A stretch of DNA of 61,871 nt, the filler included, from Hausera hauseri (lineage: Eukaryota): the NCBI GenBank assembly GCA_046269625.1. It is 11 parts of 11 records of this genome, joined end to end, with 100 filler letters (N's around TTAATTAATTAA, not from the genome) between each part and the next. Parts side by side here need not be neighbours in the genome. Positions count along the whole stretch, not along the records: positions 21,918 to 29,203 come from JBJURY010024786.1; 10 more parts are not named here. The stretch is one strand, 5' to 3'. Below are positions 1 to 53,239 of the stretch, in pieces. Every line of letters starts with the position of its first letter. Positions within the stretch are counted from its first letter, which is position 1. A program made the translations under genes and the position numbers. The notes beneath the pieces were generated by a model. That model made no database searches and had not been told where the DNA came from. It was given only the letters and a program-made list of their open reading frames with translations.

Positions 1-3000
1 CAATAATTTTCGGATGAGAACTTGGTTTCGGCGTGAGGTGGAAATTCGTTGCATTGATACGGTTTTTCCTGAATGGTTATTGACGAGAATCTATAAATAT
101 TACCCAAGGTAGTATTTGCATAAAGTTTAATTGGGGTTGTCGCGTTATTAGCTAATCTGATCGGCACCCGACCCGAAGCAACTCTTGTTAATTCGTTACT
201 GAACACGATATTCGGATTTCATGTCTCCTTTGGCTCGACATATACTGGTCATCATCTTGACGAATTTGTGCATAAAACAACGTGTCCTTGTTGGAATATT
301 TTCATCTACCTGAATTGACATTTTTCCTAGTTTCCTGTCCTTTATATTTTATACTTCTTTTACTGGTCCGAGCTCTATTAATTTCCCAACATGGAAATCT
401 AATGCTGCATTTGGTAGTTATCTCAATAAATCACATCCTAATACTACATCGTCAGTTAGTTATTCCATTATGGAGAATTCGTGATTAAACAGTTGTCCCA
501 TCATATGCATTTCGGGGTTCCATTTATATTTACGTCTCAATGACTGCTCAAAAACTCTAAAGAAGCCTCAGTATGTTGCTAATGTGGATACAAGTGTTTA
601 CGCAGATTTTAATTGTCTTTGATAAATGACATCTCATATCGTGCATCGATTAAGGCATAGATTTCCTAGTCTTCAAGTCGAACCTTAACGAAAGATCTTC
701 ACTCTATTATTGTTCCGTAATGATTTGATGCAACTTTGGGTTGTTTTACCGTCGATACTTTATATCCGTTAATTCTAATCTCAGTGGAAGTGGCTGGTTG
801 GTTGGTTATTTGTTTTAGTTCCTCGATTGCATATACATTACTATTTACGCAATCAATAATTTACGTTCCGTGGTCCTTTATTATCTGTTGTTGTTCCTGC
901 TTGTGCAATAAATTATGGTCCATGATTCTTGAAAGTTAACATTTCCTGGTTTCGCAGATTTTCGCAAGACTTGGGTATTCGTGAATATAATATTCTATGA
1001 TTATCAACCGGTTGGCATTTGTAAGGAACAGACATTTTTCCTGCCTCATGCATTTTTCGTAATACACCACAGTGTTTTGTTCCTTCGTAAGGGACCCCGA
1101 TTTTTAATGTTTTTCTATAAATTTCCATTTGATATGTACTCTTTGATTGTTTGTCACAATTTTTATATACAGGTGCTGTTGGATGTAATATAAGCAACGG
1201 CAGTTTTATGACTGAATATGCTTTATGTCTATTTAATTTGGAGACGGCGACACTTCCCTTAGGCTCATCATCAACTGAATCATTCCTGCGCATATATCTG
1301 TTAATGATTTTCCGTCCATAATTGAATGTCAATTTTCTTCGTCTCTTACGGTTATGGTACCCAACATGCCGTTCTACGTCGCTTTTCCATTTAATTTTTT
1401 CGTAGGCCTTTACAAACTTACCAAAAGTAGTTATAATCTCAGTTAAAATTTTGCGTGAAAATCCTGTCAGTGCTTGAATTACGGCCTTGATTAGATATAC
1501 TAAGAAGTAAATTGACAAAAGTCCCTAGGCTACCTCTCCGAAGATTACGAATGTTCCCCAGATTTTGTATAAGATTTCTGTAGTTACCCCTTCATAGTCA
1601 TTGGTACCACGTAACGATTCCCATATTGCTTGATAACAGGAGTCTCCTATAATTGCGTGTAGGTCGATTCAGTTCATTCGTGCGTTGACGTGGAAATGCA
1701 AAAAAATTATCTAAATGCTTCGAATTCTCTAAGTCTATATATACCTTTCGTCGGCGTATCTTGAAACTTGCAGTCGGTTATCCATTTTACCAAAGTGGTC
1801 CGTCAGCTTTCCTGGTGCAGTGGTTAATCCTCCATTTGGTAGGTCTATACACTCAGTTTCACTACGTCTGAATATAGATTTTTCCAGACTCGCATTGCAT
1901 TCCTTTAGTGTCGTTGGTTGTGTAGAATTTGCAAGTGGAACTATGGTAAGTGGCATTGCCAGGCTTGATGTATTCTGATACAGCACCGGAAGTTCTTGCA
2001 TGTATCTTTTTTCTTCTACGTTAATCGAAATATCCTTTTTCTCGCATTCACAAGTCATTAAGACTTCACCCGTGACTCTACCGAAAAATCCTTCTTTCAT
2101 TGGAATTGTAGGTGATACTAACTCCGGATTTGCGTATATTAGTGCCAATTTGGTTTTCATAAATTTCATGTCCAATTTACCATTGATCGTTATCATCTTG
2201 TGATATAACTCGGTTATTCCTCGGTTACTGACCTTTATAATAGAAATAGGCGCCCCGATTTTGCAGGTAATTTTCGATTCGTACATCTTGTGTTTCTATC
2301 TTAAATAATTTAACATATCTCATTCTCTGCTGCAAAGAAAGCTTCATAATTGGCGGCATGCATCAGCACATCGCATTTCGTACGACATCCTATATTCGAT
2401 TACTGTTGGTAGGGGCCAGTTTATTTCTCATGGTAATTTCCTTGCAGCACTTTGGACTAGACTAATGGCCTTGTCGAAATCATTTTCTCTCGCCGGGTTT
2501 GTTTTAATCGCTTTCTTAATTCTTCTGTGATATTTTCTACTATAATCTTATCCATTAGAGCTTCATCTGTTAAAGTGCTTTTCGATAATTTAAATCGGGC
2601 ATTTTTCATTTTTTGATGCACTAAATATAATTTTCGCCTTTTCCTCCACTACGTCGCCTCAGAATAATTTACAATACATATCAAATATTTCATTAACTCG
2701 GTTAATCCTTCGTTTCCTAAATTAAGGGTGGGTATGGACTTTTGTCTCAACTCTTTAATTAAATCTCCGTTATAGTCGGTTTCTTCTCTCACTTTCCTGG
2801 GCCTTCCAACCCGGCGTTTCGGTTTTGTCTTCATCGTCACATGAATTTTGAGTGGGACTAAATTTATGTCGTATTGTTTGTTGTCCGCATCTCTTTGTAA
2901 GTTTTCAAAATGTGGACTCCCAATATTCGTCCTTCACACTGTTCAGTTCTGGCCTTACGTGTGGCCTCTTATTTAGTCTCATCAATTGCGACTACGACCA

Positions 3001-9596: not shown

Positions 9597-10306
9597 TTAG
9601 TGTATGTGTGATTGTATGCATGTTTGCACATGCTAAGATATGTCTGTGTGCATATTCATGTGTTTGTCTGTGTGTGTAAGTAAAGATGTGAGTAACTTGA
9701 GAAATGAATATTTAAAATATATGTCTGTGTGTCTGTATGCTTGTTTGTGCTTGTAAAATGTAATTAACATGAGAAAAGGTATATCTCAGATATATGTTCG
9801 TATGCTTGTGCATGTACTTTTCTGTGCATGCAAAATGTAAGTAACCTGAGAAAAGCTATATGCTTATACTTGTAAAGTGCAACCAACCTAAGAAAAGCTG
9901 TATCTCGGGTATATGTCTGTGTTTTCCTGTGTGCGTGCATGCAAAATGCGAGGAACTTTGGAAAACGTATAGCTCAGATATATGTTGTGTCTTTGTGTAT
10001 TTGTATGTCTGTGCATGTAAGTAATCTAGGAAAGGAATGGCTCAAATATGTGTCACGTGTGCATGTTTGTGTGTGGGTAAAATGCGAGCAACTAGAGAAA
10101 TGACTTATTAAGAAATATGGTGTGTGTATGTGCCTATGTGAGTAAAATGCAATTAACCTGAGAAAAGGTATATGCCAGATATATGCCTGTATGCTTGTGC
10201 TTGTAAAGTGCAACTAATCTTAGAAAAGGTATATCTCAGGTATATGTCTGTGTATTGCATGTGCATATCTGTGCTTGTAAAGTGTAAGTAACCTGAGAAA
10301 AGGTAT
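9597..10306. repeat. Degenerate minisatellite, ~55-65 bp units (core GTAAGTAACCTGAGAAAAGGTATATCTCAG plus TG-rich spacer)
   Basis: Core recurs roughly a dozen times with variation. Confidence 0.85.
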
Positions 10307-19440: not shown

Positions 19441-22400
19441 CACTTTAATTTCTCAGTATTACATTTGTTACTTAGAATACTGTTGGAAGAAAAACATCAA
19501 CATTCACATTTCTAGTACCAAAAATTACCGTAGCACATTTATTAAAAATATTAAATTAAAATTCGTATAGTTAGTGTTAAAAATTAAAATGCATAATTCT
19601 AAAAAATCATTTTGGGATTTTATAACAAATGGAGAAATGTACGAAATATAATGTTGATAAATAACATGAAAAGATTTAATTTGTTGTCAGAAAATGATTC
19701 ATTGAAATTTGTGCAAGCCCCAGAAATTATTGTCTGGATAGTAATAATTAATGCTTTGTGTTACTTACTTTGGCTGGAATCCGACTCAATTCTCATACAA
19801 AATACCATTAATTAATACCATTATATATGTAATCGTATCCTACTCCATTTGACTTCGATTATATCTCGGAAAGGCATTGACTACTGTCGATCTGATTGAT
19901 AGATTTCAATTTATAGAAAATTTGTAGAGAAAATATTACTTGTAAGATGAAAATGGTAAATTTAATGGGAAACTAAAAATTATGAAAATTTTAAATTTTT
20001 ATTCTGATTAATAAAACAAATGACAAATAAAATTCATCCGATAGTCAGAAACATCCACAAACCAACAAAATTCAGTCAGTCATATCCAGACGGACATCAT
20101 CCCAATTAGACATTTGAAAAGAAGTAAAATATGAAAGTATTATAAGTTTCATAACGAAATAAAATATATTTTACAAATTAAAATATTTTTTAGCAAAATG
20201 AACAATTTTTTCCAATCGTCTTCGTAAAAAATATCGAAAATTTTTCGAATGTAATTGATCGTCAAGACGTGGAAAATTTTCATATTCCATCCTATAATAC
20301 TCTCGCAGCTCTTTTAGGAATTTCATACTCAAACGAAGCCATGAATTACATTTAGAAAACTGGTCCAACGATTTGCATCTGTCGACACTTGAATATGACT
20401 TACTCAGCCGAGAAATGTAGTGCCACAGATAAGTCTCAATGCGCAAATTGAAATATTCGCATGTGAGTGAGCTGATAATAACGAAAAAGTCAGTATGGCA
20501 TAATGAATATATTTTTGAATTTAAAAAGTCCACAAGATTTGTGATTTCTGATGTATGTTTATTGGAAGTTGAATCATCACCGGTATGAACTGCAAAAAGT
20601 ATTTCTGACGTTCGAATTAATTTACATTCCTTGTCGGACCAGGACGTTTATGAAATGAACTTTAAACAGGCTATTTTGAAATCCCTTGATGTTGCATTTG
20701 ATAAAAGAATTTTTACCAAAGAATATCCTTTACCGTTGACATTAATTTCACATAACAATGCATTAGATAAGGTTGGTTGTAAATGAGGATTACAAATTAC
20801 AATCAATATGATTTTGAAATTGTCTTAATTCGTACAATATGGGCATAACATTAAACACACAAAAGTTAATCGGTTGGCCATTATTGAAATTTGAAGAGGA
20901 ATTTCATATACGAACATTTATTATAAACTAATATGTACATCGTCTTTGGGGCAGCAAATCAAATTTAAATAACATGATATTAAACGTTCTAAAAATCGAC
21001 CAAATCAATTAAAAACGAAGGAATCTTATTATGTAATCTAACTTTCTAACTCTTACCGTCTATTTTTTCTTCCCGTGGTTCAACTTGTTGTTCAATATGT
21101 CTATTCATCTATAGCGAATAAATTGGTTCGGTAGTACTAACAATGGGCCGTCTTTAAATTTTATTAAGATTTCTGTTGACTATTAAGGAATACCAATGCT
21201 TACCAATTAAAGAGTCAACAGTCTGATCCTTAGGCAAGTTTACTCGTAAGAATTCTCAGCAGCAATATTGTGATCAAAATTTTGCTTTTTGAGTTTTTTG
21301 AGTGTTTCTTCCTAAGATTAATTTATATACTAGTTTCGTACTCGGTAATTTATTTATGCCCGTCAATTTTATTTATTCTAATGGTTTGATTTCTATATCG
21401 TTGTAGTTTTATTTATTTGCATCTGTCAATTTTATTTATTCGTAAAACCATGTTTCTTCGCCATCGCTTTTGATTTTTGCAATCGACTGGGAATAATTTA
21501 CTTATTCTATGTCAAAATGATTAATGGAACTTCATGTTCTTCTTGGGTAGTCAAATTTTAAAATTTCTTTCAATTGACATTTTGATTAACGAGGTTTCAT
21601 TGACTTGGGTAGGTACAGGATTACATTTTGGATAACCGTTTTCTTTAATTTAGTATATCTAATGTATGGGAATAATTTTATATTTTCTGGGTAACTATTT
21701 TTCTTTAAAATCTTCTATTATTAGTGTGAGGATATAATGGAGAACGGAAATTCTAAATTTAAATTAGAAACATTTTTAAATTTTAAAAAAATTTAATTTA
21801 AAAGTGTAATATTAAAANNNNNNNNNNNNNNNNNNNNNNNNNNNNNNNNNNNNNNNNNNNNTTAATTAATTAANNNNNNNNNNNNNNNNNNNNNNNNNNN
21901 NNNNNNNNNNNNNNNNNCGGTGAAATTCTTACACCAGCCATAAAGATGGATGGACGGAAGGGATCATAGACATCATACTGAACTAATTAAAATAAAGAAT
22001 GACCACCACCTTAGCTTCGAAGAGATCAAGTTTGTAAAAAAATTATTAGACGCGATAGACCCGGATTCAAAGAGTATTAACGAGATGTACGAATTAGCAC
22101 TATTGATAGCAGAAATGGCAGAAATTAGTGACGAGAAGCTAAGGCAACTGTTACAGCAGATACAGCAAGTCGAAGAAACTTGCATTAAGACGAAACAGAG
22201 AGCGATAAGATTAGACGAACTAGCTAGAGAACTCGAAGTGTATAAAAACAAATACGCCCTTACAGAAGCCGAAAAAGCTGACGAGTCACAATTTATTCAA
22301 GATGGCAAAGAGATGTCACGTCTGAACTAACGAAATATCAAGAAAAAGGATTAATTTCACCCGAGGAATTATGTTCATTGTTAACACTGATCCACCAAAC

Positions 22401-23775
22401 GTCCGCTAATGGACGATGTTTTCGAACGACGAAAATGGTCCAAATGCAACAGAAACTACAATAACTCAGAGAAATTACATGGCCCGCAGGTGTAGATAGG
22501 CCAGCAGATACACTGTCAAGGACTTACCAACTGCCGGATAATGAAAATAAACCCGATTGGGAAGCCTATTTAGATGCAATGATAACAGAGAATCCGAAAA
22601 CCCCAATACATTTAGACGAAATTGAGATATATTTTCCAGACCAAAGGTTTGATGTAGGGATGATTTTGGACTCAGCAGAAACCGAGAAAGATTTAACTCA
22701 GCTGATCAAGGTAAATCTCACTGAAATTCAATTAAGACGGTTAGTCCCCACTCTAACTAAATTAGCTAGCGAAGGTACGATCTTCAATACAGTACGTAAG
22801 CTTTTACTCAAAGAATATGCCAAAATCCTAACAAAAAAGTATAAGAGGCGATTCTAGTAAAAATAACATCAGACTGGATGGACGAAAAGGAACAAGAGTA
22901 AAGGATGTATTACTGTGGATAAAGAATAACGGATACGCCCATGAGCTGAGCTACAGACTTTATTTCGGAGGAAGAATACTAGATGAGACAGAATTATTGA
23001 TAGAGGTTGGAATTATCCCAGTAGAATTAAACCGATTAGTGGTAACTACCGCTATCGAGGAAACAAAGGAAAAGGCTATAAGAAAGGTTAGAGCGGAACA
23101 ACCAGTAGGACGAATAATATGATTCCGAGATGCAGCAGTATATTTCGAGTACCTGCAGAGAGATGAAGATAATGAGCAATACGATAAAAATTTAGTACCG
23201 ATCGACGGCAGTGTACCTGCTATAACAAAACAAAAGCGTCCTGTCGGCAGACCACGGAAAATGCGGGAGGAGATCGACTATAATGGAGACTTAATCAGAG
23301 AATTGAGGCACATGTTCATACCGACCTTTAATGCGGATAATAAGGAGCTGAACGAACATAAGAAAAATTTGCTACGAATAGTAAACCACTCTAACCTCGG
23401 TGGTAATATATTAGACGAGAAGAAGGCCATAGCGAACGCCGCAAAGGCCATGAAGAACCTTCGGTGTAAATGAACCAAAAGTACTTTAAGCGCTGAAACG
23501 ATAATCGAGAAATTTATGGTAGAAAATACCATAGAGGAACTGAGAAAAGTGTTGCTATATCTGGCCATCAAAACCAATCCTAATCGAGAAAATGAATTTA
23601 ACAAGGCTAGTAACTTGGCAAGGAAGGCCGCCAGGAAGCTACCCCGAGAAGTGAACTGGTCTACGTTATTCGAAAAAGAGGAAGAACATCAAAGTGGATT
23701 CTTCTTCGATAACAATAGATTCGGAGATCTGCTACGAAATGTAACTGGAAATTGCAGAGGAAATGAATCGAATTG

Positions 23776-25600
23776 GCTAATTAATTTTTTGACCATGATG
23801 ATGTCAATAAGGCAAATAGACGCAGTCACGGTATATGATTGTGACAAATTTAGACTTGGCCAAAAATATTTGTTAATGGACTTGAAAATGTGCTAAGATG
23901 CGAGGCCTCACAGATTAGAAACAAAAGAGAAAAATTATATATTATATCAACAACGTGAACTAGTTACGCTGGATGGAGTAGAATGTATGTTACGGCGATC
24001 TCGCAGTATCTTCCATTGTGGACTGGTACATGGACACTCGTCAGTAATCAAGCCAACAACACCACTAATTCCGATAAATTTAGAACGTCAGCATTGTAAG
24101 CAAGCTAGAGAAACGGGGGGAACAAAATGGGACGGTATGGAACTGGAAATGCAACGAGGGAAAATAATCAGAGTGTACAAAGTAGCTGCAGGAATTTTGG
24201 ACATGCACACCGGACATTGTTATGGTGCGGAATAGGATACCGGAAAGGGATTAGAGTCAAACGTCGTGGTAGTGGATTTTTACGAAACCGAAATGCGTAT
24301 TCAGAAAGTGATGCTTCATAGTATTACTAAATTTTACACCGAGAACCACAAGTGCCATATTCAGGATGGCACATGTCCGTTTCGAAGTTCCGTAGTAATT
24401 TGGGAACCCCCAGCCAAGACCGATTGAAACTTTATCAGAATTAAAGAACTTAAATTCAACGAAACTACAGGAAAACGATACATAAGTAGCACAGAAACTA
24501 ACTCTAAAACAAGAGAAGATGTAGCTGAACAGTCTACACTTACTATATTAATTTCTGATACTCATGGATTAAAATTTGTAATTAGAGCTATGCTCACCAG
24601 ATGCGACCTCATAATGTATGACACCAACTATGAAGCATTTTTCGTAGCCGAGACAGAAATAAACACCAGAACGTTCAAACTCTAGACTCAGGACATCCGG
24701 ATTGAAGATTATTTGAAGAACAGAGACGACTATTTCTACTATAAAGGACAAGCTGAAATAGCCGAGTTGTATCACAAGATGATAACAAATGACTGTAAAT
24801 TAGATCTGGAAATCATGAGAACTAAGCTGGCCCTGATATACGCAAACCCCGAGTTGGCATCACTAGAAATTCCAATGAAGGAAAGTGTTTTTGGACGAGT
24901 AACCGGAGAGGACTTATTGACCTATGAATGTGAAAAGAAAGACGTACCGATTAATGTGGAGGAGAAGAAGTGTATACAAGAACTCCCAGTGATATATCAG
25001 GACCTACCAAGATTAGTCACACCAATTACCACAGTGTTGTTGGCGAACGCCACTCAACCGACAATTTTGAGAGACTGCAAAACTAGCTTAGGAGAACCAA
25101 TGTTCCGACGTAGCAAAACCGACTGGGTAAGTCTACCGAACGGCGGCATTATCGTACCACTTACCAAGCTGACAGGAACGAACCTAATAAAAAGACTAAC
25201 CGATGACAAATTTCAGGATACAGCCGCAAAAAGTACTTACCGACCAAAGGAAGTGGAGGAGTTTAGACAATTTCTCGCTTTTCGCCGCCAACGTACACAC
25301 GAGTTTAATAGAGCGATGAATACAATACTAGAGGATTCACGTTACCAAGCGAAATAGGAGTCATTACTTGGTGTTAGCTATTATAAGAAGGTAACTACAG
25401 AAATATTATACAAAATTTGGGGAAGATTTCTGATATTCGGACAAGCCGAGTCAGGATTTCTAGAAATATACTTCTTAATTCAACTAGTAAAAGCTATAAT
25501 TCAAGCAATGATAAATGGATATGAGATATTTACTTTGACAGGATTCTCGTGTAAAATTTTAACAGCTATTATTACACCTTTCGCTAAATTCTTAAAGGCT
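23776..25600 (+). pseudogene. env: Chuvirus-like (class III) envelope glycoprotein
   Basis: Signal-like WLINFLTMMMSIRQIDA then VTVYDC..KYLLMDLKMC; C..HCG..GHSS; CKQA; GRVTGE..C..C.QELPV; C-terminal WGRFLIFGQAESGFLEIYFLIQLVKAII..NGY..GFSCKIL, matching the recalled chuvirus G pattern. Confidence 0.8.
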
Positions 25601-26289
25601 TATGAAGAAAGTAAATAGAAAACAAATATGGAGCAACATGTGGGCTACCATAATCGGAAACGCAAAAGACACATTCGATTATAGACAGAAATTCATAGCC
25701 AGTAAGACACTTAGAAATAATTCCGATGATGACGAGCCTAAAGGAGGAGACATCATCACCAGGCCGAGTAGGAACAAAAACTACTCTGTTATGAAACTAC
25801 CATTACCAATATTACCACCAACGGCACCTATATACGAAGATTTCCAGAAGCAATTTATGAGCTCGTGCCAGACAGACATCTATCGGAAGCCGTTTAGTTT
25901 AGAAGATCCTTACGAAGGAACAAAACGCTATGGGATATTGCACAAGATCCACGAAACAGAGAAGACCTCGGCTCCACGCCATCAATCAGCAATCGACTAC
26001 CACGGCATATTTTACTCACCTAGAATACCTAAGCCAAACGAAACGCAATCGATATTTACTCGAAGCTGTGAGACTCAAAATCTCCGAAACCAAGATGTTT
26101 AGTCGCCGGTTAGGAACCCAAGAGTAGAAAACACAAATGGTACGAATAACGAATTATACCCAATCGGAGAGTTAAAACAGTTAGCCGAGCAGCCAGTTGG
26201 AACCACTGAAGTTATCATCAACGGCTGCAGTGTCTACAATACGACAGCCCAAATTAACACCACGTTATTACGGTACAGTAATCGATGGT

Positions 26290-29203
26290 GGGCCCTTCGC
26301 AAAAATTCAACTGAAAGATTGGGAAGTTTACGCGTTAATAGATACAGGATCTGAAATATCACTGATAAAATATGATTCGATCCCGCAGTTCCTACGGAAA
26401 CAATTGTATCCACCTCCCACGACAGACCCAGGAAGCATTAGAGCTTTCGGACAGTCGTCGAAAAGTAAATTCCGTTGGGAACCACAAATTCACATAATGG
26501 GACAATCTTTTCGTCATGAATTCTCAGTAATGGAGCAATTAACAGATGATGTAGTGTTAGGATGTGACTTACTGAGACAATTACCCAATATAGCAATCAA
26601 TTTCAATGCATGCAAGCTGATAGAACTTGGCCCAATATTAGGAGTCAAAACCACCAAAGATAGAAAATTCGGAGAAGTGTGGATTCCAGTGGATGAAACC
26701 ATACCACCCAGAACAGAAATTCTAATATATGCTCAGATACGTCAGGATGACGATCAGCCAATATATTTCGAACCAAAGAATCAATCGATCCAAACCTTGT
26801 GCTCAGCAATGTTTTGACAAGAGTATCAACAGGCCTCGTGCAAATCAAAATAGCAAATAACGCACCAATCCAGATCAAACTCTATGCCAATACCATATTG
26901 GGACATACGTATAGAGTACCATCAATTACTATCGGAGAGAAACTAACGTTGAGACTAAATTTTCGCCAGAATCCTATTGGCGATTTTACGAATTACATTG
27001 TCGTTATATTTCGATTATCGCGAAAGATGAAGAAAATATTGGTCGAGCCAAAACCTTAAGACTCACAATCCCACTTAAGAAAAAGCCTGGATCCAACGAC
27101 GAAATAGACTTAGAAGATCAAAAGATGCCGAAATGGTACCCCTCCACACTCGTTAAGATCAGAGATAACCAAAGAGGTTGAAAGAATGTTAAAGACCGAC
27201 ATCATAAGACCAAGCTATAGATCTTGGTATTCTCCTATACTTATGGTCAAGTAAAAAGGTACCAATAAACACCGATTCTGTACTGACTACAAAGCCTTGA
27301 ACACACTTATGATGAAAAACTCCTTCCCATTACCATCGGTAAAGGAAGCTTTGGATAGACTTTTGGGAGCTAAATGGTTCACCGCACTCGATTTACAATC
27401 CGGATATTGGCAAGTAGAGATAGAGGAGGAAGATCGGTACAAAACAGCATTTAAGACACACGACGGTATATACGAATTTAATGTAATGCCTTTTGGAATC
27501 ACTACCGGACCAGTCATCTTTACCCGTATGATGAACAAAATGCTAATGGGACTGGAGCACGCATTTGTCTATTTGGACGACGTTATGATTGCGTCAAAAA
27601 CGGAAGAAGATCATTTAAAAGACATTGAAGGTACACTTATGAGACCAGAACAGGCTGGACTGAAACTGAATCCCAAGAAGTGCAAATGGGCTCAAAATGC
27701 TGTGTCGTACCTTGGACATATAGTAGAAGGCGGATCGAAGCCGGATAAGTCATTATTAAGTAAGATATCGGATTGTATGGGACCTCAGAATCAAAAGGAA
27801 TTAAGACACTGGTTAGGTCTGCGTGGATATTATGCAACCTACGTACCGAATAACGCAAAGATAAACACACCTTTGTATCGGTTACTTAAAAAAGGGATCA
27901 AATGGAAATGGACCGATGTCGAACAAAAGGCTTTTTATGAAATGAAGAAAATTCTAACTAGTAAACCTGTTTTAAGATATCCTGACTTCAACTTACCGTT
28001 CATAATCAAAACAGACGCCAGTAAGGAAGGTATTGGATATGAATTGGCTCAGAAACGAGAGGACGAGGAGTTAGAACACCCAATCGCATATGGAGGGCGT
28101 TCTCTAAAGAAAGATAAGAAGAACTATTCAGTAACAGAGTTGGAAACGTAGGCAGTAAAAGAAGCACTGCGACATTTTAACGTATATGTCTATGGACAAA
28201 AGATTATAATCGTCACTGATCATAAAGCAGTTACGAATTTGAAAGATAGAGCAAATAATCCAACGTGTAGACTAAACAGATGAATAGAGGAAATTTCACG
28301 TTGTAATATTGAATTCCAATACAAGCCCGGAAATAAACATGTCGATGCCGACGCATTATCGAGACTTAAAACCAAAACAAGCGCAGTTACAGTAATGAGG
28401 AAAGCACACCTTGAAGATTTAGTACAAAGACAACGGATTCTCACACTAGATAAGGCATTAAGGATTGCTGTCGAACAGAAAAAAGACAAGGTTATACAAC
28501 AGATTATCGAGTACGTTGATACCAACGTAACACCAAAGGATCATCAGATACTAAAACACCTACAACGATATGGTCACAAATACTGCGTCGCTGGAGATTT
28601 GAACCACGAGAATGTGTTATACTACGAACGAAAAGGATGAAAATTAGTTGTCATACCAAAAGGATTGCGTTTAGAAGTATTAATGGCCAAACACGATTCG
28701 TATTTGGCCAGACACATGTCATGGAAAAAGACCCTAGTAAGAATCTTGAATAAATATTATTGGCCAAGTATTTACATTGATGTGAGAAATTTGGTGAATG
28801 CTTGCGAAGTATGCGCAAACAAACAAAGAAAAATGAAAAACTACATCGCCGAACTTAAGCCTATCGACGTGCCCGATAGACCAATGCAAGCAATGTCTAT
28901 GGATATTGTAGGACTATTGCCTACGACCCACAAAAATAACAAATACATTTTGACCTGTGTGGACCAATTGACTCATTTCGTGGAGCTTATAGCGTTACTA
29001 GACCAAAAGGCCGAGACCTTGGCAGAAGCTGTGGTCCGGAAAATCATTTGCAGATACGGGACACCCGAACAAATCTTGACAGACCAAGGAAGAAACTTCA
29101 CGAGCAAATTGTTCGACAAAATTACCAAAATTTTCGAGATTGAACGATTAACTACCACAGCTTACCATCCCCAATGTAATAGAATGGTCGAACGAATGAA
29201 CGC
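26290..29203 (+). pseudogene. pol: Ty3/gypsy pol: protease, spacer, RT, RNase H, integrase
   Basis: ALIDTGSEIS; FTALDLQSGYWQV; MPFG; VYLDDV; TDASKEGIG; H..H..YYWP..CEVC; MDIVG; ILTDQGRNF; TTAYHPQCN. Confidence 0.95.
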
Positions 29204-29303: not shown

Positions 29304-32284
29304 AAAATCGCTTCTACTGCGACAAGGCAATACACCAATCTGGAAAATCGTATTAAAATTGAAGTCGAAAAACGGTCGCAGATATATAGTCTAAGGAATA
29401 GGATGATGCATCCAGCTGACAATGAAACACAGAAAATAATTATAGCTTGTATCCTCGAATTCGATGAATATAAAGACAAGTTTGACTATGCCTGCCGGAT
29501 CATCGATGTTATTAGAGGTCCGGATGATGAGCTAGAAGACTCCCGTAAAATGTTAAATAATGGGATCTTAGCGAAGCCAGAAATCGCTAATCAATTAAAT
29601 GAGTGGTCCAAACTAATAAAGAGGTTGAGTAAATTAGTGGCAAATAGAACGGAAGAGTTTCTGGAGAGTGAACCTACAGTAAAGAAGCAGTTGGAAGAAG
29701 GCGCCCGAAATTTAGATACAATGAGAGAAGAAATCGATATTCGAACCCAATTCGAGTCACTGCGTCAGTTGGACTTTATTGAGAGGAAACAAGAAATGAT
29801 GACACTAGATGACATATATAAAATGATAGAAGAAACAAACTTTGCACAAAAACGAAATCGGATTCGTGACCTCTATCCAAGATTAAGAAAAGTCCGCTTA
29901 GAAGGAATTCAGAATTTGACCACTGGAGAGCCTATAGAAGAAATATCGGTCCGTGATCTTAAGACTGTAGACGTTTGTCCAAATTACCAGTCGACCCTTG
30001 AAGAGGTAGTGACATTCTTACATCAATCACAGGAAAGGATGGCTGGAACTGATCAAAGGCATCATACCGAACTAACTAAAATAAGGAATGACCAACATCT
30101 TAACTTCGAAGAGGCCAAGTTTGTTAAAAGATTTCTTGACGAAATAGACTTAGATTCAAAAATTATCAATGAGATGTATGACTTAATACTACTGATGGTG
30201 GAAATGGCAGAAGTCAGCGATGAGAAATTAAGACAGCTGTTGCCACAGATACGACAAGTTGAAGAAACTTGCATTAAAACCAAACAGAGCGATGAGATTG
30301 GACGAACTAGCCAAAGAGCTTGAATCGTATAAAGTTAAGTATGCTCTTACAGAAGCAGAGAAGGTTGACAAGTCGCAATTCGTGCAAAGATGGAAAAGAG
30401 ACATAGCTTCCCAGTTAACAAATTATCAGGAAAAAGGGTTTATATTTGCAGAAGAATTACGCCAGCTGCTAACCGTATTACTCCGAACTTCCGGAAATGG
30501 ACGTTGTTTCCGAACCACACAAATGGTTATAATGCAACAAAAACTACGAGAACTAAGAGAATTAGTAAAGGAAGCAAACTTAGCCCAGCCGTTAGGAACT
30601 CCGGAGGCCGACTTCGGATTCCTCGAAGATGAGAACGAATGGGAAGCGCATCTGAATGCAATAATCGCCGAAAGCCCGAAAAGTCCCGTACACTTGAACG
30701 AAACAGAGACGAGTCCATCAGATCAGAAATTCCATGTAGAAATGCTTCTAGACCCGGCACAAACTGAAAAGGATATATTTAGGTTAATCAATGTAGACCT
30801 TACTGAAAATCAATTAAGACGGTTGTTCCCCACTCTAACCAAATTGGCCAGCGAAGGTACCGTCTACAGTGCTATGCCAAAACTTTTAATCAAGGAATAT
30901 GCGGAATTTTTGAGGACCAGGCCCGAAGAGGCAATTAAAGTAAAAAAAACGGCTGACTGGATGGAGGAAAAAGAACAGGAGTTCACCACGCGCTCCCTTG
31001 TAAAGGATGTACTACTATGGATAAAGAACAATGGTTACACCCATGAGCTAAACTATAGACTCTATTTTAGAGGAAGAATACTAGACGAATCGGAGTTATT
31101 GATAGAAGTTGGAATTATTCCCGATGAGATAAACCGGTTAATGGTAACTACAGCTATCGACGAAACGAAGGAGGAGGCTATAAGGAAAGCTAAAGCAGAA
31201 CAACAGGTAGGACAAAGACTAGGAGTCCGAGATGTAGTAATATACTTCGAGTACCTGCAGACAGACGAGGATAATGAGCAATATGATAAAAACTTGGTAC
31301 CTTTAAACGGCAGCGTACCCGTTGCAACGAAACCAAAGCGTACTGTGGGTAGACCACGGAAGATACGAGAGGAAAACGACTACAATGGAGACCTAATTAA
31401 GGAATTGAGACAAATGTCCATACAGACCTTTAGTGCGGATAATGAGGAACTGAACGAATTGATGAAGGATTTGATACGAATAGTAAACCACTATAGTCTC
31501 AGCGGTGATATATTGATGAGAAAGAGAAAGCCATAGCGAACGCCGCAAAGGCTATGAAAGGTCTTCGGTGCAAATTATCCAGAAATACTTTAAGTGATGA
31601 AGTATTGATTGAGAAAATTATTATAGAAAATACTATAGTGAAATTGAGAAAAGTGTTACTCTATCTGCCCATTAAAACAAACCCAAATCGGGAGAACGAA
31701 TTCAGTAAGGCCACTAGTTTGGCAAGAAGGGCTGCCAGAAAGTTGCCTCGAGAGGTGAACTGGTCTAAACTATTCGAAAAAGAAGAAGAACCTCAGAATG
31801 GATTCTTCTTCGATAACAATAGATTCGAAGACTTGCTACGGAATGTAACTGGAAATCGTAGAGGAAATGAGTCGAACGGGTTAATTAATTTTTTGACCCT
31901 GATAATGCTAGTAAAGCAAATGGGAGCAGTTACAGTATATGATTGTGACAAATTTAGACTTGGTCAAAAATACTCATTAATGGACTTAGAAATGTGAAGA
32001 CGAGAGACCACACAAATTAGAAACAAAAGAGAAACATTACGTGCTATATCAACAACGCGAACTAATTACATTGGATGGGGTAGAATGTATGTTGAGACGA
32101 TCTTGCAACATCTTCCACTGTGGATTGGTACACGGACATTCATCGATAATTAAGCCTACAACGCCCCCGATTCCGATAAATTTAGAACATCAGCATTGTA
32201 AGCAAGCGAGAGAGATGGGAAGAGTAAAATGGGACGGCATGGAACTGAAAATGCAGCAAGAAAAAATACTCAGAGTCTACAAAA
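29304..32284 (+). mobile_element. Third family-A copy: long N-terminal polyprotein region (helical, UBL, AT-hook) and the first ~130 aa of glycoprotein
   Basis: ORFs 29403-30323, 30259-31536, 31554-31997 and 32041- are joined by frameshifts and align with 21918-24180. Confidence 0.85.
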
Positions 32285-32954
32285 ATATCAGCTGCAATAC
32301 GACTTGTACAACACGTATCCCGGAGAACGAAGCATCTATCTGAAAGGATATTGTCCAAAAATCGGAATATGGAAGTTTCCGCCTCCAACCACGACGACGA
32401 GACCGTCCACTGCTCCGAGCACAACTTTCGCTACTACAATTGCCACCTGGGATGGACTAACCGAAGAAAAACGAGCTAGTATACCTATCAGGATTTTAAC
32501 AAAAAGTGATAGACTTCTATTCTACACTGAAGAAACGTTAAATTATGACGTTAAAATTGAATGTCGTACCCTGTATACCAATCAGATCGTGATCTTAAGG
32601 AAGAATAATCCGGAAGCAGAATGTTAATCATCACGACTGCAGCACGAATGTATAATCAGAATCGCTGCAAAGGGTAAGAACCCTAAAACTTATGCAGTGC
32701 GCACTCTGAATAACAAAATGGAAGTAATGCGGTATAAAGGTCTTAGTACCCAGAGCGTGTTCACCACGAATAGTTCCATCAAAGAAAACAATTTACCGAT
32801 AATAGCTATATTTAGTTTGTCAATTTTCGTTCTTGTAATATTAATAGCGACGATTTTTCTAGTTTCCAAAATTTGTAATAAGCGCGATAAAAATCAAAAG
32901 GGAGATAAACGGGTAAAAGGGTATCGAGACGGACCTTATGATAGCATAACCTAA
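32284..32954 (+). pseudogene. Type I membrane protein remnant (Thr/Pro-rich stalk, TM, basic tail), unknown function
   Basis: PPPTTTTRPSTAPSTT; one in-frame stop at 32625-32627; TM LPIIAIFSLSIFVLVILIATIFLV followed by SKICNKRDK. Confidence 0.55.
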
Positions 32955-38554: not shown

Positions 38555-41500
38555 CATTGACGGCCTAATTACTTGTCGGTGGAGTAAACGAAAAGTGGCT
38601 TTAGCTTCAGGGTGGTGTAGCGAATGTACACTGTTGAATGCTTATCTTTGCAAGGGTGGTGAGAAAATTATTGCGGAATGACCTGGTTTGAAAGTGTCCA
38701 AAGCCACACCGTCAACAATTGTGCAAGACTTGAAAGAATTAAGCATGTTCTGAGGTGGCTGGTTTCGTTGAAGTTGTACTTGAGTAAATATTGGTGAAAA
38801 ATTAATCGAACTGACTGATCTAGGTAAAAAATCGGCAACCAAATTATTAACCCCGTTAATATGTTTTATGTCGAAGTTAAATGTCGATAAGTATGATATC
38901 TGTCGTTCTTGGCGTGTGGAAGAATGTTTCGGGCTTGTGATCGGTCTTTATAGTAAAATGGCGAGCGACAAGTAGGAGGGAGAAATGCTTTAAGGCGAGA
39001 ACGATGGTCAATAATTCTCGATCGAACGTTGAGTATCTAGTTTCAGGGGATGTTAACTTACGAGAGAAAAATTCTAGCGGTTGATTTCCTCCTTTGTGGA
39101 TTTGGTGGAGTACAGCACCTACTGCAGTGGTTGAAGCGTCTGTAGTAAGGATTAGTTCCGCATCATGCTTGAGGAAGGCGAGAATGTCGACGGTATTAAT
39201 TCCTTTGCGTAGCTTATCAAACTTATCAACCAATTCAGGTGTCCACTGGATTGGCTGATGTTTTTTGCAACCGCTTAAGTGTGCGAATGGTGCTGTCAAT
39301 TCACAGCAATATGGTACATATTTATGCACAAAGTGTAGTGTACCGAAGAAGCTGCAAATTTCGGTGGTCGTACGTGGTAAGTGGATATTTGTAAGTGCTT
39401 CAACTCGGTCTGGTTGAGGAGAGTGGCCGTCTGGTGAGATAACGTGGCCTAAAAAGTTGATGGGCTTTTTGAAGAAATGGCATCTGTTTAAATTGACTTG
39501 GAGATTATGGTGGTTAAGGCGTTGGAATATTGCGCGAAGGTGTTCCTCGTGTTGTTTGGCCGAAGACGAAACAATTAGAATATCATCAATGTAAGGGTGG
39601 CAAACGGAAAATCTGAGAGAATTGAGTCAATATGTCGCTGAAAACTCTGCAGCATTTCGCAAACCGAATGGCATAAACAGGTACTCATAGAGGCCAAAAG
39701 GAGTGGTGACAGCAGTTTTTTCTATGTCTTCGGGTGCCACCGGTATTTGATGGTATGTTTTGGCCAAATCGATGGTCGAATAAATTGCGGTTGGATTAAG
39801 GCGATGCAAGATATCCTTGATGAGTGGTAAAGGGTACGCATCCATAATAGTAAATTGTTTAACTGTCGGTAATCACCGCATGGTCTAAAAGTTCCGTCCT
39901 TTTTTGTACGATGTGTAGAGGTGACGACCAAGGAGATTTGGAACGACGTACAATGCCGGAGCGTTCTAGTTCAAGAAATTCGGCTTCTACGGCCTGTCTA
40001 CAGCGAGGTGACAGTGGTCATACCTTTTGGCGTATTGGTCGTTGATGCTGTGTAATTGTGATGTACAGTGCTGTTTGCAGGAGTAAACGTACGATCTTTT
40101 TTGAGTACTCGTGGACATGATATGTTGACGAATTGTTGTAAAGTTGTAGGCAACTGTGAGAGATTCGGTGATGATGGTGAAACGGCTTGAGTAGTAGCGG
40201 ATGCCATTTGTGAATTGTTTGATGATGTGCAGTCAAGTTGTATTTGGTGTAAAATGGTCGATTTGGAAATGGTGTTGGATGAAGTGATTTCGTCAAGTGA
40301 ATTAACGTTGGTAACAGTACCACAATTGGCGACATCGAACCTCAACTGGATTTTAATATTATTATTTAAAAATTTACGGAGTGAAATATTACGAAAATTC
40401 AAAGTAGTTTTTGGTTTTCTCAAAATTGATAGCGGCGTCTCGATCTACTGCGCGGTAGTCGAAATGCTATTGACATGCTCAGTAACGTTGCCAGTGATGC
40501 CGCTCCTCAGACATCGTTGACTGCAGTCAACCAATAAATTATAATGTGATAGAAAATCGGACCCTAGAATTGCCGTCTAGACGTTAGCAACTGTAAACAT
40601 CCTATGGAAAGGTGAAGGGAATTTTGGTATGATGAAAGATAATTTAGCCGTACCAGAAATGCGCAGCGGTTGACTTGAAGCGGTGTATAAGGGAATTTTG
40701 TACAGGAAAAGATAGTGGTAATAGGAAAGTCGCTGCACGTGTATCAATGAGGAAATCAACAAATTGCGTTGTAGGAGCGGTGATTGCAGCCTTTAGAGTA
40801 AAGACAGCAAAGGAGGCGTGTCGGCATTCAAAAAGTGAAGTAATGCCTTTGCTAGAGTTTGCCGTGACTTCTGACGGCAAATTTAGTTTTTTTGAAATAG
40901 TGAACTAGGACGACTATTAGAAAAGGTGGTTCGTCCGTCCTTCGTATCGGGTTTGAAAGTGCAGCCTGGAATGCATTTACCGGCTTGATTTTCAAACTTT
41001 GCGTGGTAAATGCAAAAAACGGTACTTGAAGAAAAACTTTTGTTGTAAAATTTGCACCCTAGGCAGAATTTCTTGGCATTCTTATTGAATCTGCTGCGAT
41101 AATAGCAGATTGACGACCGCGTAGGCGATGGTGACCGGTTTCTAGATGCAGAATGGGCGCGGTCAGCAACAAAATTCCTTCGTCGGGACAGGGAAAGCTC
41201 GTTCGATTTGTTGTTTATATTGTTAATGGTTGCGTGTAGTGCGGTATTTTCAGCACGTAGATGATTAAGTTGTTGTTCTATTGATATTTTATTGGATTGA
41301 ATATCGTTAGGGCAACTGCCGCCAAAACGACTGGTGGGGAATCTAAGTGTAGAACATCGTGTGTCTTATCGGCTAATTCGGCCAATTTACAATAGCCGTG
41401 GAGTCCTCCACCACGGTAAGAAGGGCCCGGATTTGGATGGATAATGCGTTAAGAAAGTAATGACGCAGTAGTTCAGGATTGTGTTCTTTAGTGATGCCGA

Positions 41501-43144: not shown

Positions 43145-43354
43145 AATGGATGGTTGCCGTTAAAAAGGTTAAAAATTAAAAATACACACTATAAATATCC
43201 GAAAACACACATACAAAAGACAAAATTCACATCAACATATACACCAATAGCAATGATTTTATTAAAACCAATACAGAACCACGGGGTAACCACCTACCCT
43301 AAAAACAGTTCAATAAATACGATTTTACACAATAATTTTCTTTTTCTCAGTAAA

Positions 43355-46801: not shown

Positions 46802-48660
46802 ATGTTGATAATGGCGATTATAAAAATTCTATTGATAACATCATTGCTAATGCCGAAATCCGTAGGTATAGTGGCGTACGATTGTTCTAAGCCTACTGAA
46901 GGACAAAAGTATTCTCTAGTTGACTTAGAAAAATTCCCAGAAGCCGATCCAGAACAGTTAACAACTACCAGTGGCCTTACATATTAGGTGCACCAATAGT
47001 GAATTCATAAAAACAAAGATTAGGGAATGTTACGTGAAAAGATCGTTCTTTTTGTTTAATTGTGCCTTCTATTGGGGAAACTCGGCCATAATTGAGCCTA
47101 CAACACCTTTTGAGCCAATAATAATATCACGAGCAGAATGTTAGGATGCTTTTAAGATTGGCATTATAACTATACAAAATTCACACATTCCAGCAGTAAG
47201 GAACAGAATAAAATATACAAGGATTTTTAGGGTAGGAAGGATAGATAAAACAATGGAAGGCATTTGTAAAGGAGTAGATTATGATGTCGGAGGCACCATC
47301 GCACCTAGAACAGTAGCCATAGAAAATTATCAGGTACAACTGAAAGAATATGAAGGATTATTTGATTCGCAAACGAAGTTAATGACGACGATGAGTGACT
47401 ATGAATACAATAATGGTGAATGTGATAAAGGAGAGTCTAAAATTACATGGGAGACTCTAGCAAGTAAATGCCAATTAACACTGTTAAAGAACGGGAAGTT
47501 TAACAAGACAGTAGGAAAGACAGCGGAGAAAGAGACGGCGACATATAAAGAAGGAACAAAGGAAGTTAAGATGACAGAGGTAGCTACAATTGTATACTCA
47601 GAAAATCCAGAAGAAATGATGACATTTAAAGTTGTGGGAGTAGTAAATAAGTGTGGCGAAGAAATATCCAAAACCAATTATAAAGGTATTTTATTATCGA
47701 GAAAAGAAGTACCCGGAGCGAAAACTAAAATAGATAAGAAAGATATTAAGTGGACCACATACTTTGATTATAAGATCGATTTTCTAATTAATTAGGTAAG
47801 GAAAGAAATTAGGGGTTGATATCGGGAGATAATAATGAACGATTGTAAGCTGAACTACGAAATAATGCGTAATAAAATGGCACTGGTAATAACAAATCCA
47901 GATATGGTATCACCAGTACTACCCTTCGTCGACGGAGTTATTGGAAGAGTGCGGGGTGAGGTGCTGATAACAATAGAATGTATGAAAGTGGAAGTATCAG
48001 TTAGACCCACGGAAGAATGTACAACGGAACTACCTGTCGTTTATCACTCAGAGGCCCGATATGTTACGCCAGTGACTAGGATATTGTTAGATATTAATGT
48101 AAAGCCTACTTCACTATACAATTGTACTTTTAATATGTCACCAATGTTAAGATCGACAACGATAAATGGATAAGAATGCCGAAAAGAAAACCGGTTCCAA
48201 ACCGGAGACATTAAGTTTGATTAACTTACAAAGGAATCAGAAGTTCGAACCATTAACAGGAATATCGCAGGGAGGAATTTATATCCAACAAAATTTAGAA
48301 GACTATCGACGGATATTGTTGTTCCCACAACAAAGACAACGAATAATAACCGAATTAACACGGAGAGTAATGTGGGATGACGAAGGATCACCACAATGGG
48401 AAAACCTTATGGGTAAAGACAATTTAAAGAAGGTAACGAGAAACGTAATGGAAAAGATGTGGGGAAAGTTCATATATTTTGGTCAAGCCGCTTCCGGCTT
48501 TCTAGCTATTTATTTTATAATTAGCGCCCTTCAAACAGTATTTACGGCACAAGGTAAAGCATGTGGGATACATGCCGCAGTAGGATGCTCATGGAAGATT
48601 TTAATAGCGGTAGTACCGGCAGTAGCGAGTTGCTTCTTAGCGAACCATGACGCACGATGG
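46802..48660 (+). pseudogene. env: Chuvirus-like envelope glycoprotein (family B)
   Basis: MLIMAIIKILLITSLLMPKSVG|IVAYDCSKPTEGQKYSLVDL; GRVRGEVL..C..CTTELPV; GGIY; MWGKFIYFGQAASGFLAIYFII..GCSWKIL. Confidence 0.85.
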
Positions 48661-48999
48661 AAAAGGAAGATATTACAAAAGAAAGACATAAAGGAATCTC
48701 CGTATAGTATACCTGATAACGATGATGCTGAATATACTCAGATGAAAGCAAAGAAACGAGTACCCATTATCAAACAACTAGTACTTAAGACGCGGAAGCC
48801 TGAGTATAGACAGAAGCTAATAACCAACCTGCCTCGTTTGGATCCTGTAGATGAACATCATGGACAAATGTATAATGAACACCGTTAATAAATCCTTCAG
48901 CTCCACGATATGTAGTACATGCAGGATTATATCCTACTCAACAAGTTCAGCAGATGAAACAAAGTCTTGATGAACGTGAATTCACATAACTATTAACGA

Positions 49000-51543
49000 T
49001 AAAAACGAACGGCAACCCCTATATGACCTGAAATAGAAATAGAAGTGAATAGATACCACATGATGGCTCTGTTAGATACTGGATCAACAACGACAATAAT
49101 GGGAAGAAGCCAATTGCCAAAAGAATTAAAAAGGAAGTTGCGAAGGCCAACTACTACACTAGTGAACGTAGGAGCATTCGGTACCGAAGAAAAAATCAAA
49201 ATGGTCCTGGATGCCAAAATTAAGATTGGTTAACAAACTTTGAACCATACCATAAGAATAGCCGATAATCTGACTAACGAAATTTTAATGGAATGTGATA
49301 TATTAAATCAATTGGAAAACGCGTATATAGATGTGAGAACATGTCAACTTAAGACGTTCGGTGAAGATCGTAACGAAGGAATTGTCTCACTAACTAAAGA
49401 CATTACGATCCCACCACGATATGAGATAATAGTCCCGGGAAAAATAGAAAGTCGAACGTTACCGGAGATTATTTATTTTGAACCACTTCCACAAGTTATG
49501 GAAAAATATGAAGTCCTAATCGCCCCTCACGTAGATAAAGTTAGAGATAGAAAAGTTCATTTACGCATTTTTAATACGACAAACAAAGAAAAACGATTAC
49601 GAAAAGATACTAGATTGGGAAAAGTAACAAGAACTGAAGAAACAACCAAAGAAGAAACCTGCTCAGTAATATCAGACGTAGATAAAATAGAAAAGATGAT
49701 GACAAAAAAGTTGAAAAAGAAACCAGACGAAGACAAAGAAAATAAAACCTCGAATATTGACTGGAACGAAAGGTTGCAAAAATGTGAAATTCTAAGTAAG
49801 GAAGAAAAGAAAATGTTAGTTAAGTTATTAGAAAAGAATGCCAGTCGATTTGCACAAACCGACTATGACCTCGGTACCATGAAAGTAATACAGCATGTCA
49901 TTAAGTTGAAGGACGGACAGGACAAGCCAATTAAGAAGAGACCGTATCGACTGGCATATGATAAGAAACAGGAAGCTCGTAAAATAATAAAGGAAATGAG
50001 AGAAAATAAGATAATTCGACCAAGTTGCTCTCCATGGACAGCGCCGGTAGTAATGGTTAAAAAGAAAGATGGAAGTATGAGATTCTGCATAGACTATAGA
50101 GCTTTGAATGAAATAACGGAGACGGACACATATCCATTACCAAGAATTGACGAGATACTAGATAAATTACATGGATCAACCATATTCACAACTATCGATC
50201 TACAAAAGGGTTATTGGCAAGTGGAGGTAAAAGAAGAAGATAAACCCAAGACAGCCTTCTCAATCGGAGAAGGGCTATGGGAGTTTAATAGGATGCCCTT
50301 TGGATTAAAGAATGGATCACCAACGTTTCAGAGAGAAACCGAACTCCTACTGTTAAATGCTCCACACGCCATGGTTTATATAGACGACGTAATAATAGCT
50401 TCGCCAAATTTTTAGCAGCATCTAAAGAATTTGCAGGATCTCTTTGATAGATGCAAGATAATGGGTTTAAAGATAAACCCAAAGAAATGTTCATTTGCAC
50501 AAACAGAGGTAAATTTCCTCGGACATAAAGTAGACAGGCATGGTGTAAAATCTCAGGATAAACTCTTAGGAAAAATAAGAGATTTTCCTAAGCCAGGTAC
50601 CGTTAGAAAACTACGTCAGTTTCTAGGTTTAGCAAACTATTATCGAAGATTCATAAAGGATTTTAGTAAAATTGCGAAACCTCTGTATGAGTTATTACGT
50701 GAAGATTTAGATAAAGTCATCTGGACCAACAAATGCCAAAAAGCTTTCGAATATTTAAAAGATAGATTATTAACGGCTCCTATATTAATCTACCTAGACA
50801 TGGCCGAACCATTTATTTTGGCAACAGACGCAAGTGATTACGGAATAGGAGCAGTATTATCACAGAAGGGTGAAGATGGAAAAGAATATCCTGTGGCCTA
50901 TGATTCACAAATAGTTAATAAGCATCAAAAGAAATACGCGGTAATAGAAAAAGAGTTATTAGCGGTGATATTTGCTCTAGAAGTATTCTCACCATATATT
51001 AGTGAAAATAAACAGCTTATGATTTATACAGATCATAGACCACTCCAATGGCTAAAACAACATGAAAACCCAAATAGCAGGCTACTACGATGGGCTCTCA
51101 AGTTACAACCATATACATTGAATTTTCAGTATAAGTCTGGCACGCGAAATGCTAATGCCGATTACCTATCGAGACTACCTGACAAAACAGAAACGAAGGC
51201 AGTAGTTGCAGCCGTATGGAGTATGGATGGATCAGTTGAAAAAATTAAGATGAATCAAGATGAAGATATCAAAATAAGAGCCATTAGGAAATATATAAAA
51301 GATAAAATTATATCAGTGGACAGAAAATTAACCCGTCACCTGGCTCGATTCAGTGAAGCGTACGAGGAAAAGGAAGGATTTCTATATTTCATTAGTCAAA
51401 ACGGACCAGCATTAGTAATTTCTAAGAAAAATAGAACAGTTTTGCTAACCCAATACCACGATGGATTGCTTGGGGGACACCAATCAGCCAATAAGACACT
51501 AAAATTAAAACGGAAATATTTCTGGCCAACGATGACGAAAGAC
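49000..51543 (+). pseudogene. pol: Ty3/gypsy pol (family B)
   Basis: LDTGS; SPWTAPVVMVKKKDGSMRFCIDYRALN; MPFGLKN; YIDD; TDAS; TDHRPL; YHDGLLGGHQ..KYFWPTM. Confidence 0.95.
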
Positions 51544-53037: not shown

Positions 53038-53239
53038 GGGGTGGGAATAGTGAAACCCCGTCTGCCCCAGAAATTCCTTTGTTCAAAATTTTTTCCTTAC
53101 CCCCGATGACGTGCCCTCGTCTCATTTTTTCCTTACCCCGATGACGTGTTCTCCTCTCATTTTTTCCTTCCCCCGATGACGTGTTCTCTTTCCTTCCTTC
53201 CCGGGGTGTGTTGGGACCATGCACTCCTTTCTACCTACT
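53038..53239 (-). repeat. Orphan Polinton-like terminus with three ~36-bp internal repeats containing TGACGT
   Basis: Ends CTACCTACT (AGTAGGTAG on minus, as at 33842); CCCCGATGACGTG x3. Confidence 0.55.

Follow-up and report, generated by a model that had tools for sequence, protein, structure and literature searches.

Late motifs of the ALIX and TSG101 types appear to be a family trait of the tail of a chuvirus-like class III glycoprotein (Env), and as a case of sequence selection this trait is well supported. In the genome of Hausera hauseri, this glycoprotein is encoded by decayed Ty3/gypsy retrotransposons, and the tail that carries the motifs lies directly ahead of the protease. The reading that we favour, with a probability of roughly 0.6, is that the tail would bring ALIX, joined in some lineages by TSG101, to the place where capsids acquire their envelope, the motifs having been inherited with the glycoprotein.

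A decayed Gag-Env-Pol element with a gB-fold glycoprotein

The window, i.e. the whole stretch of 61,871 nucleotides that was analysed, consists of 11 short contigs chained with N44-TTAATTAATTAA-N44 spacers, and the locus with the two motifs lies on the contig at 21918-29203. An Env profile search of the window yielded four Env-bearing pieces: copy A on this contig, its sister copy A' on the minus strand (about 64% DNA identity in self-comparison), a truncated piece at 31884-32241 and the distant family B. Copies A, A' and family B are on different contigs, and A and A' are both decayed. The contig at 21918-29203 corresponds to a decayed retroelement in which an upstream region is followed by a PF24664 glycoprotein, a protease, a reverse transcriptase, an RNase H and an integrase (Pfam).

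A hydrophobic helix (23774..23824, + strand; helix 10-21 of the structure model) precedes the Env ectodomain and is probably an internal signal peptide; intact relatives present a corresponding hydrophobic peak ahead of Env. The ectodomain itself (23825..25411, + strand; PF24664, E 7e-50) is a chuvirus-like class III fusogen with the herpes gB fold. Although the Env frame (23741-25663) has 6 in-frame stops in 641 codons, the model obtained with stops read as X reaches a mean pLDDT of 83 and matches the structures of HSV gB (E 3.7e-14) and of the chuvirus glycoprotein G (E 2e-37), and the Env profile matched herpes gB alone in the PDB. In family A, the class III gB-like ectodomain sits between the probable signal and the transmembrane helix. 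The membrane region (25412..25594, + strand), delimited from 122 aligned relatives, is composed of a membrane-proximal helix, one transmembrane helix (about 25436-25492) and amphipathic helices. It is followed by the cytosolic tail and linker to the protease (25595..26225, + strand, with a stop at 26100-26102), as delimited by codon-position bias and the alignment of A and A'. Pol (26226..29203, + strand) includes a protease (DTG, 26341-26349), a reverse transcriptase (YLDD, 27570-27581), an RNase H and an integrase, and ends at the contig edge.

The order of the Pol domains (RVP, RVT_1, RT_RNaseH, Integrase_H2C2 and rve in Pfam) is the one found in Ty3/gypsy elements. Env precedes Pol in families A and B, and also in 13 relatives having Env and protease within one protein (among the best 150 of 541 relatives plus P0002). 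Self-comparison of the window detected no terminal repeat, the element being cut by the contig ends, and tblastn with the Gag parts of 7 relatives detected no capsid gene for either family A or family B in the window; relatives do carry Gag and zinc knuckles. The host element is a decayed Ty3/gypsy element of the already known Gag-Env-Pol order, with a gB-fold Env.

The coding region upstream of Env is broken (21918..23770, + strand) and starts where the contig begins. No capsid or zinc knuckle was recognised in it, tblastn gave no match to the Gag parts of the same 7 relatives, the portion at 22898-23740 corresponds to no Pfam family and an Atlas search with the upstream region gave no usable match. 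Family A has a possible ubiquitin-like segment ahead of Env (22898-23060 and 30925-31230, + strand), followed by an AT-hook-like GRPRK (23246-23260) that is also present in family B. For the ubiquitin-like guess, 30925-31230 gave only weak ISG15 matches (E 0.7-1.2), below ClpX noise, and no Pfam family. Just ahead of the Env signal, a helical domain (46239-46760, + strand) looks Bcl-2-like, with matching segments at 23330-23740 and 31509-31859 and in the relatives P0003, P0015 and P0018; the features looked for were a helical bundle round a central hairpin and a BH2-like W-x3-GGW. The low-confidence model of this domain (pLDDT 55.5, from 6 rows) finds Bcl-2 family members at all structural ranks from 1 to 16 (best Z 9.9, rmsd 2.8 over 113 residues), with a best Foldseek E of 0.047, and Bcl-xL profile matches are weak. 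If real, the Bcl-2-like domain modelled from 46239-46760 would be unusual on a retroelement.

Downstream features were also noted. In the copy on the contig at 29304-33328, Env breaks off and the next ORF (32283-32945, + strand), which has a stretch rich in Thr and a transmembrane helix at its C-terminus, is probably the membrane gene found after the integrase in relatives. The intact polyproteins P0002, P0004, P0005 and P0016 run beyond the integrase into a second signal and membrane protein, which in P0002 has an immunoglobulin domain, and two or three protease domains are present in P0004, P0007, P0008, P0010 and P0011. Elsewhere in the window are a PDZ-domain gene piece with no introns visible (4142-4880, + strand), two more gypsy Pol fragments on contigs without Env (6015-7053, + strand; 38819-40050, - strand), a decayed sequence recognised by eye that we take to be a Tc1/mariner-like transposase (8400-9300, + strand) and a stretch of about 610 codons (43145-44983, + strand) that is interrupted by one stop and matches no Pfam family. 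The segment at 10156-10863 (- strand; PF03175, E 6e-10), part of a protein-primed type B DNA polymerase, and the Cys/His-rich ORF next to it (12110-13039, - strand) are likely a Polinton-like or virus remnant.

The topology of the tail was deduced from the 122 relatives that extend to the membrane region (from the best 150 of 541 plus P0002). Alignment columns 563-580 are almost charge-free and are followed by Lys/Arg at 581 and 584; past column 584 come helices in which every third or fourth residue is charged or polar, and the tail is without a hydrophobic peak. The intact polyproteins present the order signal, transmembrane helix, Pol, signal, transmembrane helix. A single membrane pass leaves both tail and Pol in the cytosol, and the Env tail is therefore predicted by computation to be cytosolic. 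The initial annotation had named a lumenal tail as a finding that would speak against its reading; such a tail would take two membrane passes, and we rejected it because of the periodic charges past the first helix and because Pol needs the cytosol, the one uncharged span placing the tail on the cytosolic side. Family B and P0011, which have a second moderate hydrophobic peak after the transmembrane helix, are exceptions that keep this topology from being beyond doubt.

Late motifs in the window and across glycoprotein tails

The tail of copy A contains PTAP (25818..25829, + strand), a TSG101-UEV-type late motif by consensus, and LYPIGELKQL (26154..26183, + strand), an ALIX-type motif of the long form located about 61 codons ahead of the catalytic Asp of the protease. 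The long-form pattern LYPx3Lx2L and the regular expressions for the motifs were taken as general background. As the initial annotation had stated, PTAP and ELYPIGELKQL (26151-26183) share one frame past the single stop, the sister copy keeps PTAP at 1171-1182 (- strand), and family B has PSAP (48894-48905) followed by LYPTQQV (48927-48947). Its view that late motifs lie in the glycoprotein tail holds, for a tail that is predicted to be cytosolic and with both motif types kept far above chance across the family, but it did not mention the frame offsets. In copy A, the frame of PTAP and LYP differs both from that of the Env transmembrane helix (change near 25660) and from that of the protease (change near 26225), and in family B the PSAP/LYP frame is also offset from the frames on either side.

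The corresponding part of A' (807..1524, - strand) comprises the Env membrane segment, PTAP and VYAIEELKQI (807-836), and runs uninterrupted from the membrane segment to PTAP in one open frame (916-1524). That of family B (48166..49083, + strand) comprises the Env membrane segment, the tail, PSAP, LYPTQQV, which ends in V instead of L, and the protease DTG (49075-49083). VYAIEELKQI is the counterpart of LYPIGELKQL with alanine replacing proline, and since A and A' are both decayed, this may be either decay or a genuine difference. The PTAP block (118 codons) has no stop in A or A', and mismatches between the two, counted by codon position in the PTAP frame, number 68 at third positions vs 32 and 31 at the others. 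In intact relatives such as P0002 (2,974 aa), Gag, Env and Pol make up one single protein. The open frame of A', the third-position bias and these single-polyprotein relatives together assign the motif segment to Env, and the codon pattern indicates that the tail frame of copy A has been under coding constraint. In the active element, copy A would presumably have been expressed as a single ORF.

Considered alone, the window offers modest evidence for late motifs. Its six frames contain 5 P[TS]AP sites vs 0.70 expected, and 3 of the 5 are in Env tails, one in each of the three tails of the window (A, A' and family B); LYPx3L, with 2 sites seen vs 2.65 expected, is not above chance. When the 185-residue tail was shuffled 20,000 times, PTAP appeared in 0.55% and LYPx3Lx2L in 0.1% of the shuffles, for patterns that had been picked after the sequence was seen. 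The tail blocks of A and A' are 49% identical and share 5 identical runs of at least 4 residues, PTAP being one among them. The two P[TS]AP matches outside Env, at 54974-54985 (- strand; in a short frame, after a hydrophobic run and RRR) and 53058-53069 (+ strand), are probably due to chance.

A word-based homologue search produced 1 match with the window Env as query and 1 with the alignment as query, and a HMMER scan of representatives provided a first set of 151 proteins (the best 150 of 541 relatives plus P0002). The membrane region is reached by 122 of these, and 118 have tails of at least 20 residues (P0006, P0015, P0080 and P0088 were dropped). The motif hydrophobic-Y-P-x-hydrophobic is present in 44 of these 118 tails, vs 1.07 in shuffled tails (maximum 6) and 2 in an ectodomain control of equal length, and P[TS]AP in 17, vs 0.86 shuffled and 0 in the control; the shuffles preserve composition, not local proline clustering. 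The tails are mutually unalignable (0 of 6,903 pairs by BLAST), and among 41 representatives of less than 35% identity, the Y motif persists in 18 (0.44 shuffled) and P[TS]AP in 4 (0.30 shuffled, maximum 3). This looks like the pattern of a selected linear motif within a fast-changing tail.

Proline is needed in this first set (best 150 of 541 plus P0002): YPx-hydrophobic has 57 sites vs 5.5 shuffled, whereas Y-nonP-x-hydrophobic has 51 vs 44.8. Of the 81 YP sites, 61 have L, I, M or V at position -1, and 55 have L, I, V or M at +3. The long form LYPx3Lx2L is rare, with 2 sites in the 118 tails. We dropped PPxY as a tail motif (9 vs 3.2 in the first set, with 4 in the ectodomain control, and 4 vs 2.8 in the second set described below). 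Dileucine signals, at 6 vs 8.3, show no enrichment in the first set. After two proteins had been reclassed as protease-fused and two run-on tails trimmed to 60 residues, the 13 protease-fused tails of the first set contained YP in 11 cases, the full Y motif in 6 and P[TS]AP in 1. The 104 tails without a protease in the predicted protein, some of which are fragments, contain hydrophobic-YPx-hydrophobic in 38 and P[TS]AP in 15 cases; 68 have a motif and 36 have none.

A second set of 118 proteins (117 new ones from the best 120 of 138, plus P0153) has 112 members that extend to the membrane end and 110 tails of at least 20 residues, which are not independent because many are about 40% identical. 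P[TS]AP is found in them 26 times vs 0.95 and YPx-hydrophobic 37 times vs 4.5. The named members among the best 120 are mainly hymenopteran genome proteins and one virus protein, the glycoprotein of Hubei chuvirus-like virus 3, whose tail has PSAP and then YPDL. Many insect-genome tails of this set that are without YP end in Tyr plus an amphipathic Leu pattern, Y-x-x-L-x-x-x-L, which may be a sorting signal or, by analogy with the non-proline ALIX-binding forms of some SIV Gags mentioned in the available parts of PMC8402826, such a form. In a FastTree phylogeny of the C-terminal half of Env, copy A is on a long branch in a 16-row group (support 97) that includes every one of the 14 fused rows. 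The motifs are scattered across the entire tree, which is midpoint-rooted and from which we claim no direction of transfer. The conservation across copies that the initial annotation had proposed to examine is thus far above chance at the family level but fails for LYP between the window copies, its proline being absent from A'.

Origin, proposed role and alternative readings

The initial annotation viewed the motifs as budding signals normally carried by Gag that sit here on the Env tail. Such a transfer is not borne out, since the motifs are present in tails without a protease and in a named chuvirus glycoprotein and therefore appear to belong to the glycoprotein. They adjoin the protease because of gene order, and the likeness to HIV-1, in which p6 lies before PR, would be a coincidence of this order; the p6 sequence is translated in the Gag frame, unconnected to PR. 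We rejected this parallel as a cause, the motif existing without a protease and the distance from YP to the catalytic Asp varying from 29 to 91 residues in fused relatives (61 in copy A). The pre-Env regions of 13 relatives (6,716 aa, from the best 150 of 541 plus P0002; five resemble whole Gags and one has immunoglobulin domains) contain 0 P[TS]AP, 0 PPxY and 3 YPx-hydrophobic sites, two of them within an apparent capsid domain. The Gag side is not bare of motifs, because LYPRL (29871-29885) is present in the ORF upstream in another copy of family A.

The active element would produce a single polyprotein, to be threaded at the ER, with the internal signal directing the ectodomain into the lumen, the one transmembrane helix stopping transfer, and tail and Pol remaining in the cytosol. 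The protease would then release Pol, so that the motifs end up close to the newly formed tail end, as in stand-alone relatives. Env trimers would bring ALIX via the Y-P motif, the putative conserved core, and in some lineages also TSG101 via P[TS]AP, gained and lost over time, to the membrane where capsids get wrapped, either the cell surface or endosomes. The polyprotein processing, the binding partners and the role in release are what we infer in this scheme. More tentatively, and with odds somewhat against it, tail late domains might drive ESCRT-dependent budding in the whole family of chuvirus-like class III fusogens (chuviruses, invertebrate gypsy and BEL/Pao elements), taking over from the late domain of a matrix or Gag protein; the tail of Gag-Env-Pol elements might tether Pol at the budding site until the protease cuts, and a single gene capture would bring both entry and exit.

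A rather unlikely alternative is that the motifs bind ESCRT and sort Env into multivesicular bodies, for turnover, surface control or exosome-like export, instead of acting in particle scission. The same family-wide conservation would fit, the motifs are on a membrane cargo and not on a capsid or matrix protein, and an endosome/exosome route is cited for the transfer of ZAM particles in the available parts of a review (PMC3383448). The co-occurrence of P[TS]AP and YP in 14 of the 118 tails and the absence of P[TS]AP from the scanned Gag regions (both from the best 150 of 541 plus P0002) argue against it, so that a budding role is favoured, not proven.

The signal Yxx-hydrophobic directs endocytosis and sorting through clathrin adaptors, and Y-P-x-hydrophobic could be one of its forms, PTAP being incidental; we consider this improbable. 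YPxL does match the pattern, the second set (best 120 of 138 plus P0153) has an excess of non-proline forms (58 vs 31.9), and gypsy Gag and EIAV motifs have been tied to clathrin-dependent sorting in the available parts of PMC3383448. The first set (best 150 of 541 plus P0002) is, by contrast, enriched for the proline form alone, with the hydrophobic residue at -1 in three quarters of its YP sites (61/81), the YPIG and YPTQ of the window do not match Yxx-hydrophobic, and the enrichment of P[TS]AP would be left unexplained.

Retroviral proteases cut at aromatic|Pro sites, and LY|P might accordingly be a cleavage site that releases PR. YP does lie 29-32 residues ahead of the catalytic Asp, near the start of the protease, in 3 of 11 fused relatives, but in the first set (best 150 of 541 plus P0002) hydrophobic-YP is present in 53 of the 104 tails with no protease behind and [FW]-P-x-hydrophobic shows no enrichment (1 site vs 3.1), which, with the variable distance to Asp given above, makes a cleavage site very improbable. 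Chance matches in the proline-rich, decayed linker of copy A, in line with the level of LYPx3L across the window, the missing proline of A' and a PTAP that is unremarkable between A and A', are hardly credible given P[TS]AP in all three Env tails, the coding constraint in the tail frame and a 20- to 40-fold enrichment across the family (best 150 of 541 plus P0002; best 120 of 138 plus P0153), where this explanation is largely refuted.

Comparison with known systems

The Gag-Env-Pol order with a gB-type Env has been described in nematodes, bryozoans and flatworms (Chary and Hayashi 2026, PMC13524379, in its available parts, which cite Sacco et al. 2022 for GAG-ENV-POL gB-type elements). Like copy A, these errantiviruses have Env ahead of Pol, a gB-type ectodomain and the order PR-RT-RH-IN; the copies studied here are broken, with LTRs and capsid gene not seen, and are likened to them by gene order and Env fold. 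The main text of PMC13524379, in the parts available, has no mention of late domain, ESCRT, budding, cytoplasmic, polyprotein or Bcl-2. The glycoprotein of chuviruses (Jingchuvirales) and the Env of the BEL/Pao element Anakin (PF24664) belong to the same fusogen family and present the same membrane region. They stand alone or come after Pol, whereas the tail of copy A, at about 200 residues, is the longer one and continues into the protease.

Our search of the literature, mostly without subscription papers, found no report of late motifs in the tails of this glycoprotein family, and none is present in the available parts of PMC13524379, PMC6394706, PMC3383448, PMC7642597, PMC12992720, PMC10084718 and PMC7828637. 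Within these parts, such motifs are noted in other louse-virus proteins and not in G (PMC6394706), the use of ESCRT by errantiviruses is stated to be not known (PMC3383448), and the hallmark chuvirus proteins listed are the glycoprotein, nucleoprotein and polymerase only (PMC10084718).

P[TS]AP is bound by the UEV domain of TSG101 and YPXnL by the V domain of ALIX, as in HIV-1 p6 and with YPDL in EIAV p9 (PMC8402826, available parts), and the window motifs conform to this consensus. The motif types and their order are the same here as in HIV-1 Gag p6 (PTAP and YPXnL) and EIAV p9; the late domains of these viruses are carried by the capsid polyprotein, not by a fusogen, and homology is not implied. 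In Toxoplasma, the vacuole-membrane protein GRA14 recruits ESCRT through P[S/T]AP and YPXL in its cytosolic C-terminus (PMC10159163, available parts). GRA14 is a precedent for both motifs on the cytosolic tail of a membrane protein; unlike Env, it acts in nutrient uptake, is unrelated in sequence and is no fusogen. Foamy viruses have their PSAP located in Gag. Their Env itself promotes particle release, capsid-less particles included; this Env is a class I retroviral protein whose effect on release is controlled by ubiquitination of the leader peptide (PMC7828637, available parts).

For the exit of Env-bearing retrotransposons and chuviruses, the tail motifs offer a short and specific candidate answer, and late motifs on the fusogen would explain how the capture of a glycoprotein, in several gene orders, makes a retrotransposon virus-like. 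The element type has already been described; the family-wide presence of late motifs on a class III fusogen tail would be a new placing of a known mechanism.
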